39,664 bases of DNA from a virus (lineage: Duplodnaviria; Heunggongvirae; Uroviricota; Caudoviricetes): the IMG/VR virus record IMGVR_UViG_2563366953_000005, positions 1 to 39,664 of that record, one strand, 5' to 3'. The notes beneath the pieces were generated by a model. That model saw only the letters and a program-made list of their open reading frames with translations, did not search any database and was not told the DNA's origin. Made by a program: the position numbers and the translations under genes. Within the stretch, counting starts at the first letter, position 1. The number at the start of each line of letters is the position of its first letter. Positions 3,134-5,152 of this stretch are shown one piece after another.

Positions 3134-5152
3134 ATGGTTAAGCTTACTTCGAATTGCTCTTATCAAAATTACCTTAGTGGTGATATGATAAAGGAAGTAT
3201 TAATAAAACAGTTGATAATGGAAATGTTAAAATATAGAGCAGACATTGATGGGCTTCGCGCTATCGCAGTTCTACTGGTTGTTTTATACCATGCTGGATT
3301 TAAAATACCCGGTGGATTCGTAGGCGTAGATGTATTTTTTGTAATATCTGGTTTTCTAATTACAACTATTATTGATAGGGAGATAAGAGAGGAGTTATTT
3401 TCATATAGAGCTTTTTATCTTCGCAGGATCAAGCGATTAATACCTGCTTTATTTTTTATGATTGTTGTTGTATCAGCTTATTGCAGTTACTATTTGCTAC
3501 CAGACGATTTAATTTCTTATAGTAAAACAGCCATTCTGTCTATGTTGGGCGTAAGTAATTTTTATTTTTATGCCAATACAAATTATTTTGACTCATCTGC
3601 ATTTGAGCCGTTACTACACACATGGTCTCTGGCTGTTGAAGAGCAGTATTATATAATATGGCCTGCGTTACTTATCTTACTGTATAAAAGCAGCAAGGCA
3701 AGTATCAAGACATTTTCAATGTCTATACTTTTTTTGGGGTCAATCACACTGTCATGGTACTACGTATACCAAGATAAAAACCTAGCGTATATGATGTTGC
3801 CTTTTAGATTTTTTGAATTGATGGCAGGGGCGCTTACAGCTATTAACTTCAGAACATTTCATTCAATTGCAAATAACAACCAATTATTATCATTGACTGG
3901 TGCATTGCTAATATTTTTAAGCGCCTTTTATATAAGTGACTCAAGTTTTTTTCCTGGTATACTAGCGTTACCTGTTGTAATTGGCTCATGTTTAATTATT
4001 GTTGTTGATAAGGGTGTTGTTTCTAAATTCCTATCAATTCCACCAATCGTATACATTGGTAAGATTTCTTACTCATTTTATTTATGGCACTGGCCGATAA
4101 TTATACTTGCCAAATACAGGGGGATTGAACTTACTACTTACAATGCCTTTATGCTGGTTATTTTATCGTTAATTGCAGCGTCGTTCAGTTATCACTTTAT
4201 AGAAACACCATTCAGGAAATTAAAATCATGGAAAGTAGCTTATACTGCATTATATGCAACGCCACTTGCGGTGGTTTTTATTTTTTCATATGTAATAGTT
4301 GCAAACGATGGTTATAGATCACGAATTTCAGGTCTGTTAAACGAGCTTGATGATAGCAATACCGCTCATATAATCCGCAGTCAGTGCATAGGGCCAATGA
4401 AAGTTGGCAACATTGATGAGTGTCATTTAGGAGTAAAAAAAGAGAAGATTGACGGCGTATTGCTCGGTGATTCCTTTGGCAATGCTTATACTGGTTTTGT
4501 TGATGTTCTTGCTAAAGATGCCGGATTGATGATTCACGATACCACAAGGAGTTCAACACCAACAATACCAGGTGTATTTGTTTCGTCTATTACCAAGCCA
4601 GTATCTGACGAGGCAGCAAATGCTATAATTAAATATAATGATAACAGGACAAAATTTGCATCATCACAAAAAATTGTTATTATTTCTGATTTTTGGGGGC
4701 AGTATACTGAAAAAAACCCAGAATTTAGAGTTTTTGATAAAGAAAGAAAAGAAGTAAGTAAAAATTCGTTTCAGTTAAGAACCGCCTATATAAAATCACT
4801 TATTGATAACGGTACTAAGGTATTTATAATCGCTAGACCATTTAGTGGTGTTGGGTCATCAACAATGGCCACGTTACGTAATGACAAATTACATCATGTT
4901 AACCTAAATAAAATCACATTTGGATATGGTGAAGATAAAGATAAACGAGTTGAGTACAGACTTAAAAAAGAACTTCCATTAATAACAATTATTGATCCAA
5001 ATGATGTTTTATGTAATTCTGGAAAATGTCACGCTAGTATATCTGGAGATCTATTATACAGGAAAGATGGCTACCACTTGAATTATTCATCATCAGAAAA
5101 ACTAGGGTTTGAATATATTAAGAAATATGGAAACCCATTAAAATCACTTTAA
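3134..5152 (+). CDS. O-antigen / LPS O-acetyltransferase (acyltransferase-3 membrane domain plus C-terminal SGNH-like domain)
   Basis: 672-aa ORF (true start probably at an internal Met near 3185-3224); N-terminal motif RADIDGLRAIAVLLVVLYH and about 10 TM helices typical of acyltransferase family 3; C-terminal soluble domain with GDSFGNAY (SGNH/GDSL-like). Strongly AT-rich relative to flanking phage genes. Confidence 0.75.
   Translation: MVKLTSNCSYQNYLSGDMIKEVLIKQLIMEMLKYRADIDGLRAIAVLLVVLYHAGFKIPGGFVGVDVFFVISGFLITTIIDREIREELFSYRAFYLRRIKRLIPALFFMIVVVSAYCSYYLLPDDLISYSKTAILSMLGVSNFYFYANTNYFDSSAFEPLLHTWSLAVEEQYYIIWPALLILLYKSSKASIKTFSMSILFLGSITLSWYYVYQDKNLAYMMLPFRFFELMAGALTAINFRTFHSIANNNQLLSLTGALLIFLSAFYISDSSFFPGILALPVVIGSCLIIVVDKGVVSKFLSIPPIVYIGKISYSFYLWHWPIIILAKYRGIELTTYNAFMLVILSLIAASFSYHFIETPFRKLKSWKVAYTALYATPLAVVFIFSYVIVANDGYRSRISGLLNELDDSNTAHIIRSQCIGPMKVGNIDECHLGVKKEKIDGVLLGDSFGNAYTGFVDVLAKDAGLMIHDTTRSSTPTIPGVFVSSITKPVSDEAANAIIKYNDNRTKFASSQKIVIISDFWGQYTEKNPEFRVFDKERKEVSKNSFQLRTAYIKSLIDNGTKVFIIARPFSGVGSSTMATLRNDKLHHVNLNKITFGYGEDKDKRVEYRLKKELPLITIIDPNDVLCNSGKCHASISGDLLYRKDGYHLNYSSSEKLGFEYIKKYGNPLKSL

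Follow-up and report, generated by a model that had tools for sequence, protein, structure and literature searches.

An acyltransferase gene beside the tailspike gene of a Uetakevirus prophage

The window analysed here is a stretch of 39,664 nucleotides (IMG/VR record IMGVR_UViG_2563366953_000005, Caudoviricetes) in which a gene for an acyltransferase-3 (AT3) protein with a C-terminal SGNH domain lies between the lysis cassette and the tailspike gene of a prophage (Table 1). The window opens with the E. coli chromosomal genes yfgH and yfgI, passes into phage DNA at a junction near 1100-1150 and consists of prophage from about position 1150 onward. The prophage backbone is 97% identical to those of phiV10, PAS61 and other E. 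coli Uetakeviruses, and by this comparison the element is a temperate phiV10-like Uetakevirus (a podovirus of the phiV10/epsilon15 group) integrated beside yfgI in E. coli. A near-identical prophage occupies the same site in E. coli Z142-6, with 99.2% identity over the first 9 kb of the window and an acyltransferase gene that differs at only 6 nucleotides and 1 amino acid, and a second one (~99.2% identical) is found at that site in the E. coli assembly GCA_019120875.1. The prophage after yfgI is represented in this way by three non-identical E. coli copies, the open reading frame (ORF) of the acyltransferase being intact in all three. Among 5426 complete E. coli genomes the gene is carried by a single one, that of Z142-6.

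Table 1. Positions of the features discussed in the text, numbered from the first nucleotide of the window.
Feature	Position	Strand	Details or basis
yfgH	1-516		E. coli chromosomal gene
yfgI	532-1059		E. coli chromosomal gene
Lysis cassette	1254-3072	-	Pfam Phage_holin_8, Phage_holin_3_7, Glyco_hydro_19, DUF2514; phiV10 annotation
Rz-like spanin gene	1254-1751		Lysis cassette
GH19 endolysin gene	1748-2374		Lysis cassette
Holin gene	2364-2672		Lysis cassette
Holin-like membrane protein gene	2659-3072		Lysis cassette
Divergent intergenic region	3073-3217		Alignment with phiV10, SPC32H and L003; megablast break at 3189
Promoter-like site, predicted	3141-3113	-	Promoter scan
Weak -35 element TTATCA, predicted	3160-3165	+	Promoter scan
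Extended -10-like element TGATATGAT, predicted	3181-3189	+	End of conserved block
Exchangeable AT-rich module	3190-7069		GC 0.373; acyltransferase gene, stem-loop and ~630 C-terminal tailspike codons
AT3-SGNH acyltransferase gene, probable extent	3218-5152 or 3224-5152	+	644 aa or 642 aa; homologue alignment
G+C-rich stem-loop	5158-5177		8 bp stem, 4 nt loop; terminator scan
Tailspike gene	5180-7552	-	790 aa; PHROG tail families
Tailspike N-terminal particle-binding part	aa 1-~235		74% identical to phiV10 gp25
Tailspike C-terminal receptor-binding part	5180-6802 (aa ~251-790)	-	Unrelated to phiV10
Small ORF	7682-8005	+	PHROG 450 (unknown function)
tRNA-Arg	24612-24688	+	Anticodon TCT, reads AGA; ARAGORN
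Integrase gene	38414-39664		Start codon at the end of the window

A previous examination of the letters, made without database searches (hereafter the sequence-only reading), had described an ORF at 3134-5152 on the plus strand, coding for 672 amino acids with AT3 and C-terminal SGNH domains, convergent with the tailspike gene and divergent from the lysis cassette. Both domains were recovered with Pfam (Acyl_transf_3 and PF19040), and both orientations are seen with respect to the tailspike gene and the four lysis genes. The length of 672 residues is that of the longest ORF, but the probable protein has 642-644 residues, and the distance of about 60 bp given between the divergent start codons has to be revised, since it is 61 nt for the longest ORF only. 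The nucleotide similarity to phiV10, Tyrion and SPC32H detected with megablast extends from the holin-like gene through 3185-3189 and then ends, whereas homologous proteins and the DNA similarity to relatives in other phage types start at 3204-3230. Protein homologues align only from the ATG codons at 3218 and 3224, the sole ATG of an 85% identical relative (the Uetakevirus prophage L003) is the equivalent of 3224, and counting from 3218 gives R14 and H25 the very residue numbers that they have in OafA. The true start is thus most likely ATG 3218 or ATG 3224. Two upstream candidates were rejected, both of them lying within the block 3073-3189, which is non-coding and conserved among Uetakeviruses with unrelated cargo: ATG 3134, whose equivalent in phiV10 meets a stop after a few codons, and ATG 3185, which sits within the -10-like element of that block. 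The equivalent of the latter is the start used by PGAP in Z142-6 (655-aa product), and this RefSeq start is probably a mis-annotation. With the start at 3218 or 3224 the divergent gap becomes 145-151 nt, which fits the 145-161 nt found at the same slot in epsilon15, phiV10, Tyrion and SPC32H.

The gene is also distinct in composition, with a G+C content (GC) of 0.339 (0.27 at third codon positions) against 0.493 in the rest of the prophage. A profile in 500-nt windows gave a mean of 0.346 within the gene and a background of 0.493 ± 0.028, i.e. the gene is about 5 standard deviations lower. The claim that it is more AT-rich than the flanking phage genes holds for this drop, but the AT-rich tract is longer than the gene and runs on into the C-terminal part of the tailspike. 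The ratio of nonsynonymous to synonymous divergence (dN/dS) of the acyltransferase against its 85% identical relative is 0.08 at a dS of 1.16, which points to strong purifying selection.

Family, functional residues and predicted fold of the protein

Residue numbers are counted from ATG 3218 unless the 672-aa ORF is stated. On the 672-aa ORF, Pfam Acyl_transf_3 (PF01757) matches residues 36-349 (E 3e-31, model positions 2-321 of 326) and PF19040, the SGNH domain fused to AT3, matches residues 425-658 (E 3e-24). The homology search further returned relatives in phages and a full-length match to PHROG 6705, 'O-antigen acetylase' (E 3e-206). The only NCBIfam match was to the mycobacterial SucT, far below threshold (103 bits against a cutoff of 1275) and uninformative.

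Every residue whose mutation abolishes or strongly lowers OafA activity, as listed by Pearson et al. (2020; PMC7448272), has a counterpart in the window protein. R14 and H25 in transmembrane helix (TMH) 1 of OafA correspond to R14 and H25 (Arg-X10-His), the periplasmic-loop serine S112 to S113, the linker glutamate E325 to E329 and the C-terminal cysteine pair to C599/C604. The GG-F/Y-XGV-D motif that fused enzymes have in loop 1-2 reads GGFVGVD (32-38, including G33-F34 and D38), the FFXISG motif reads FFVISG (40-45), the RXXR motif is formed by R70 and R73, and the SGNH triad by the serine of GDS 417-419 (Ser419), D617 and H620; the R/K-X10-H, RXXR and FFXISG motifs are those defined for AT3 acetyltransferases in the same work (PMC7448272). 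When the window protein was aligned with five relatives, BTP1 OafB, SPC32H Oac and the PAS61 acetylase, the OafA-type functional residues proved invariant in all nine proteins, R14 excepted, which falls outside the 5'-truncated SPC32H annotation, and the triad S419/D617/H620 aligned on S430, D618 and H621 of OafB. Over 77 homologues most of the functional residues are invariant or nearly so, and the linker cysteine pair C390/C402 is likewise invariant.

In a confident AlphaFold2 model built from the 77-homologue alignment (mean pLDDT 91.6, pTM 0.78), a helical membrane bundle (8-333) is followed by a further long helix (338-362), by a linker that is structured between 364 and about 400, and by a C-terminal alpha/beta domain. 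Closer kinship to peptidoglycan O-acetylases, the outcome that the sequence-only reading had itself named as adverse to its proposal, was not what the Foldseek search against the PDB returned. The first of the 50 matches listed is 6SE1, the periplasmic domain of the lipopolysaccharide acetyltransferase OafB of Salmonella Paratyphi A (E 9e-6, target TM 0.63, 288 alignment columns against a 261-residue target); the peptidoglycan enzymes PatB of Campylobacter and Neisseria come below it, at ranks 3-6, and no OatA entry is among these 50. The structural link to OafB comes from the fold search alone, because the sequence search of the acyltransferase against PDB chains gave nothing at E <= 0.01. 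Characterised enzymes are only distantly similar in sequence: OafB and SPC32H Oac share 30-33% of residues with the window protein overall, and about 40% within the AT3 half, and the Oac of Pseudomonas phage D3 shares 30%. By these comparisons the window gene is a separate lineage of the known AT3-SGNH enzyme class of OafA/OafB type, lying in the slot where other Uetakeviruses carry theirs.

The conversion slot of Uetakeviruses

In every Uetakevirus examined, O-antigen-modifying cargo lies between the holin-like gene and the tailspike gene and, save in PAS61, on the strand opposite to the late genes. The slot of epsilon15 contains the annotated serotype-conversion genes, encoding an alpha-polymerase inhibitor and a protein resembling O-antigen polymerase, with a terminator stem-loop downstream of them; that of phiV10 an AT3-only oac, annotated in its record for host O antigen acetylation and superinfection immunity; that of SPC32H a gtrA remnant and an OafB-type AT3-SGNH 'O-antigen acetylase'; and that of Tyrion an AT3-SGNH 'O-antigen acetylase'. 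The slot of PAS61 also holds an AT3-SGNH acetylase, which is inverted (L018:1665-5866) and, given that it shares the strand of the tailspike and lysis genes, could be co-transcribed with the late genes.

The window gene presents two features of lysogenic-conversion cargo, i.e. carriage by a temperate phage (an integrase gene and the 97% backbone identity to the temperate phiV10) and location in a variable slot beside the receptor-binding protein, on the strand opposite to the late genes, as a predicted transcription unit of its own. Acetylation of the O157 antigen blocks phiV10 infection, according to the abstract of PMC11854483 and to a review (PMC9558356), and acetylation by Sf6 Oac and BTP1 OafB blocks the carrier phage's own tailspike (PMC9558356). 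Our literature searches found no accessible account of an oac phenotype for SPC32H or SPC32N.

A module shared with P22-like prophages

The tailspike of the window is a mosaic of two parts, a phiV10-type N-terminus with PDB sequence matches to phage tailspikes and depolymerases, and a receptor-binding part unrelated to phiV10. The latter is absent from the other sequenced Uetakeviruses in the phage collection, where a tail fibre of Salmonella phage Se_EM4 (157.8 kb), at 51% identity, is its sole substantial match. Its identity is 85% to the counterpart in L003, and 58% and 53% to those in the P22-like tailspikes of strain SC418 and of prophage L005, respectively. In blastn comparisons with phiV10, SPC32H and PAS61, similarity is lost near 3189 and returns near 7065-7075, within the tailspike gene, the tailspike part of the intervening tract (5180-7069) having a GC of 0.406. 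Because these breaks in the backbone bracket the drop in GC, and because the insert has relatives in a different genus of phages, the horizontal acquisition proposed by the sequence-only reading is supported.

The relatives of the acyltransferase gene reveal what travels with it. In L003 it occupies the same slot, and both the acyltransferase and the tailspike are 85% identical to those of the window, with a dS of about 1.2 and a dN/dS of about 0.08 for the two genes alike. At the edge of a P22-like prophage near thrS (L005-L007), a 68% identical acyltransferase gene is convergent with the gene of a P22-type tailspike whose C-terminal 550 residues are 53% identical to those of the window. An Enterobacter P22-like prophage (L013) carries a 55% identical acyltransferase and a convergent tailspike with an unrelated receptor-binding part; therefore, pairing with a receptor-binding domain of the window type is limited to the closer relatives. 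A P22-type or Uetakevirus-type tailspike N-terminus is encoded convergently just downstream in 6 of the 7 IMG/VR relatives with at least 50% identity. Taken together, the acyltransferase gene and the receptor-binding region of the tailspike gene are best regarded as one exchangeable module common to Uetakevirus and P22-like prophages. The AT3 class as such is commonplace in phages, since more than 500 IMG/VR viral contigs encode relatives.

A cluster of surface-glycan acylation genes was noticed beyond the tailspike gene at the end of a P22-like prophage (L008/L009:7001-14057), comprising two different AT3-SGNH genes, one of them 60% identical to that of the window, and genes for an ALGX-domain and an MBOAT protein that make up an alginate-type O-acetylation pair.

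Association with one O-antigen type

The O-antigen cluster of Z142-6 contains wecB, rmlBDAC, a gene for an unnamed protein at the usual wzx position, a pyruvyl transferase gene, wzy and three glycosyltransferase genes, and its GC of 0.315-0.35 is like that of the acyltransferase gene (0.34). Its wzy is present in 7 of the 5426 complete E. coli genomes. DNA related to the tailspike receptor-binding region was found in only 3 genomes of the same set, all of them among the 7 sharing wzy, an overlap with a hypergeometric probability of 1.3e-9, or 1e-6 when conditional on the index strain. The carriers represent three separate integration sites: yfgI for the window-type prophage, yfdC/tRNA-Arg for a P22-like prophage of SC418, and the interval from ybhB to ybhC for a P22-like remnant that USMARC-49610 and Z142-6 have in common. 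In the P22-like elements the receptor-binding part of the tailspike is 58% identical to that of the window, and a glucosylation operon, gtrA-gtrB-gtrC(DUF6056), runs convergently towards the tailspike gene from the exact place that the acyltransferase gene has in the window. Since either an acetyltransferase gene or gtrABC is found there, phages with this family of receptor-binding domain carry some O-antigen-modifying cargo at that place. The restriction of the domain family to genomes of one wzy type and its covariation with the acyltransferase bear only indirectly on whether the glycan that the enzyme would modify is also the receptor of the phage.

The gtrABC-type operons of two same-wzy E. 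coli strains other than Z142-6 (L021:1913-6893 and L022:1915-6893) encode GtrA, a GT2 protein, a small ORF and a DUF6056 protein. Z142-6, the only complete E. coli genome with the acetyltransferase prophage, also holds the P22-like remnant with gtrABC, and its gtrB is split by IS3 (L023:3360-5550; NZ_CP159689.1 4269260-4271450). The same remnant, with gtrB intact, is present in USMARC-49610, a strain without the acetyltransferase prophage. From this single case it can be speculated that the loss of glucosylation may have opened Z142-6 to a second phage.

Predicted control regions

Upstream of the gene, positions 3073-3189 are kept among Uetakeviruses regardless of the cargo that follows, and a four-phage alignment degenerates right after the predicted extended -10-like element, which in phiV10 reads TGATATTAT and in SPC32H TGATAAAAT. 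Dam/OxyR-type phase variation, as in the gtr operons of Salmonella, was considered and is without support because GATC is absent from 3073-3217. Downstream, the predicted stem-loop is located within the 27 nt separating the convergent stop codons and folds in RNAfold with -18.0 kcal/mol on the plus strand and -15.8 kcal/mol on the minus strand, the U-tract being weak on the former and missing on the latter. It is likely the terminator of the cargo transcript, and epsilon15 has an annotated terminator stem-loop at the equivalent position.

Proposed function and alternatives

We consider it likely that the product of the gene is an OafA/OafB-type O-acetyltransferase of the inner membrane, built of two domains, that masks the O antigen from the phage's own tailspike. 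An O-antigen acetyltransferase acting as lysogenic-conversion cargo is what the sequence-only reading had put forward, and comparison sustains it at several levels. Gene anatomy and module borders, the conversion slot, the match of the OafA residues, the fold match to OafB, co-inheritance with the tailspike, and the link to one wzy with gtrABC as the replacement cargo were all observed by comparing the window with its relatives.

In the mechanism that we propose, the gene would have a promoter of its own where the conserved intergenic block ends; transcription in the lysogen would start there, run counter to the late and lysis genes and stop at the stem-loop that parts the gene from the tailspike gene. 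The 10-helix AT3 domain would accept acetyl from a donor in the cytoplasm, probably acetyl-CoA, and make it available on the periplasmic side, its passage relying on the Arg-X10-His pair of TMH1 and on the RXXR motif. The eleventh helix and the structured linker would tether the periplasmic SGNH domain, whose Ser419-Asp617-His620 triad would move the acetyl group to one hydroxyl of a sugar of the O-antigen repeat unit. The acetylated O antigen would then escape binding and cleavage by the receptor-binding domain of the phage's own tailspike, and because the modified O antigen is not bound, lysogens would resist superinfection by the phage and its relatives and their epitopes would change. This scheme follows OafA/OafB, Sf6 Oac, BTP1 and phiV10 by analogy where it concerns the acetyl donor, the sugar to be acetylated, the expression of the gene in lysogens and the exclusion of the phage.

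Several points weigh against this assignment. Characterised enzymes are no closer than 33% identity to the window protein, the SGNH domain is only distantly akin to that of OafB (14% identity in the structural alignment), and both the acceptor sugar and the O antigen as the class of substrate are deduced from comparison. The promoter and the terminator are consensus-level predictions, and the promoter scan gave no more sites than shuffled sequence. The pairing with the tailspike is not absolute, as L013 attests, and relatives at 49-57% identity occur without a nearby tailspike gene in Pantoea and Pseudomonas chromosomes. Furthermore, the wzy association comes from very few genomes, two of them maybe clonally related, and wzy was read from Z142-6 instead of the host of the window; because the numbers are small and two strains may be related, it counts as support and not as proof. 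Literature searches on the strain name Z142-6 and on the gene content of its cluster did not identify the O serogroup.

Three alternatives have to be weighed against O-antigen masking. It is quite unlikely that the enzyme acylates some other glycan, be it peptidoglycan, enterobacterial common antigen (ECA), capsule or colanic acid, or osmoregulated periplasmic glucans (OPG), with the adjacency to the tailspike being incidental. This idea draws on the breadth of the AT3-SGNH class, which includes the peptidoglycan O-acetyltransferase OatA (PMC7448272), and on the generic name 'peptidoglycan/LPS O-acetylase OafA/YrhL' that some sources give to relatives, LPS standing for lipopolysaccharide. The PatB ranks among the fold matches listed and the sub-threshold SucT match would point the same way. 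It is countered by OafB as the top fold match with OatA missing from the 50 listed, by a slot that holds O-antigen-specific cargo in every Uetakevirus compared, by O-antigen-specific gtrABC replacing the acyltransferase gene beside a related tailspike, and by a receptor-binding domain that tracks one wzy type. E. coli peptidoglycan is not known to be O-acetylated, and the known E. coli acyltransferases for ECA and OPG, WecH and OpgC, are AT3-only proteins. The window protein does not have the characteristics of an OatA-type peptidoglycan O-acetyltransferase, and its context is that of phage O-antigen cargo.

We also attach little probability to a scenario in which the O antigen is acetylated but the selected role is not self-exclusion, and the modification serves as a defence against unrelated phages, in immune evasion or serum resistance, or to provide a preferred form of the receptor. 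Such a role would accommodate the unrelated tailspike that accompanies the 55% identical acyltransferase of L013, as well as the two prophage modules of Z142-6, whose receptor-binding domains are related (58%) and whose cargo differs, so that modification and recognition may be more complicated than assumed. The precedents speak for self-exclusion, since the acetylation due to Sf6 Oac and BTP1 OafB (PMC9558356), and that due to phiV10 as far as the abstract of PMC11854483 goes, blocks the carrier's own tailspike. The tight co-inheritance with the receptor-binding domain also fits self-exclusion.

It is very improbable, finally, that the gene is a silent or decaying passenger, intact by chance, silenced by H-NS or unexpressed in lysogens and without any contribution, for although a GC of 0.34 is typical of H-NS targets, promoter-like sites are no commoner than in shuffles and just one of 5426 complete E. 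coli genomes has the gene, its dN/dS is 0.08 at a dS of about 1.2, catalytic and structural residues are kept over 77 homologues, the ORF is intact in three non-identical prophage copies, and the upstream block with the extended -10-like element is shared with phiV10, whose oac is annotated for superinfection immunity.

Acetylation of the O antigen to mask it from the carrier's tailspike is therefore the function that we favour. It is tempting to go further and to speculate that the acetyltransferase gene and the receptor-binding region constitute a 'recognise-and-mask' cassette that crosses podovirus genera, that the masked structure is an undescribed O-acetylated, rare O antigen of rhamnose/ManNAc/pyruvate type, and that IS3 in gtrB unmasked the receptor in Z142-6 and let this second phage lysogenise; we hold this extension to be possible yet rather doubtful. 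Such a self-contained cassette would recombine as a single unit at fixed junctions, one where the conserved promoter block ends and the other at the hinge that follows the particle-binding domain of the tailspike. If true, the IS3 event of Z142-6 would mark a step that can be traced in an arms race among prophages that modify the O antigen.

Comparison with known systems

The closest counterparts in build are OafB of Salmonella prophage BTP1, once called GtrC family II, and Oac of SPC32H and SPN9TCW, which is near-identical to it. They have the same AT3, TMH11 and SGNH arrangement with the same motifs, are encoded, like the window protein, convergently to the tailspike where the late region ends, and place one acetylase type in both a P22-like phage and a Uetakevirus, as is the case for the window gene. 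Rhamnose acetylation by OafB protects against BTP1, whose tailspike is a rhamnosidase (PMC9558356). Unlike in SPC32H, there is no gtrA remnant upstream of the window gene, and the host is E. coli. OafA, the abequose O-acetylase of Salmonella Typhimurium responsible for the O:5 factor, is also a two-domain AT3-SGNH enzyme whose essential residues are matched in the window protein, the comparison having been made through the published residue list. It is a Salmonella O-antigen acetyltransferase for which, in contrast to the window gene, no tailspike neighbour was seen.

The oac of phiV10 shares with the window gene the backbone (97%), the slot and the upstream block, and it is similarly AT-rich (GC 0.31), but its product has 338 residues, is AT3-only without the SGNH domain, and is paired with an O157-specific tailspike C-terminus unrelated to that of the window. 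The matches listed for the window gene at the protein level do not include it. The conversion genes of epsilon15 have the same slot and orientation, a similar upstream spacing (161 nt) and the stem-loop before the tail fibre gene, and likewise alter the receptor O antigen; they differ in that the polymerisation linkage is changed and no acetyl group is added, the alpha-polymerase inhibitor and the beta-polymerase being unrelated to the window protein. The gtrABC genes of P22-like prophages occupy the equivalent position in same-wzy strains, but form a three-gene glucosylation system of unrelated proteins. OatA of Gram-positive bacteria shares the AT3-SGNH fusion and the two-step acetyl relay, but its substrate is the N-acetylmuramic acid of peptidoglycan and its SGNH domain is smaller and without the structured extension (PMC7448272); it is not phage cargo.

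Phage-borne AT3-SGNH O-antigen acetyltransferases in the Uetakevirus conversion slot are thus already known, this lineage being an uncharacterised one, and the locus leaves the current understanding of how such systems work unchanged. It represents a branch of the OafA/OafB class from E. coli, with about 30% identity to those members that have been studied, and what it adds is the corrected start codon, a combination of cargo and receptor-binding module shared with P22-like prophages, and the circumstantial link to a rare O antigen. Phage-borne O-antigen acetylases alter the serotype, the epitopes of vaccines and antibodies, and phage susceptibility; therefore, a strain with this prophage may be mistyped or resist therapeutic or diagnostic phages of the same O antigen. 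The pairing of acetylase and tailspike across phage genera could help to predict which tailspike recognises which modified glycan.

The tRNA-Arg gene and neighbouring features

The sequence-only reading had also suggested that the phage tRNA-Arg serves rare AGA codons of the acyltransferase gene. AGA accounts for 11 of its 25 arginine codons and is enriched threefold (17 against 5.8 per 1000 codons in the other prophage ORFs), and the tRNA is present, so that this much of the suggestion stands; a specific tie to the gene does not, because the tRNA belongs to the shared backbone. It sits in the part common to phiV10-type phages with other cargo and is annotated in O157 typing phages and in Z142-6. 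The AGA content of all these cargo genes scales with their AT content, and in the relatives from P22-like prophages the share is as high or higher (18 of 26 arginine codons in L005). Acquisition of the tRNA-Arg together with the AGA-rich cargo was rejected, because it lies 19 kb away in a backbone shared with phiV10-type phages. The evidence suggests, weakly, that the tRNA may aid translation of the acyltransferase gene in a manner not specific to it. It lies on the strand opposite to the flanking late and structural genes and could be expressed independently of them.

The integrase start codon forms the very end of the window, and the right attachment site therefore lies beyond it. Between the tailspike gene and that of an 824-aa virion protein, the small ORF with the PHROG 450 match gave a weak match to an anti-repressor family and is the counterpart of epsilon15 gp19 and phiV10 p24. 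It is probably over-extended at its 5' end, with 107 amino acids against the 85 called in its relatives.

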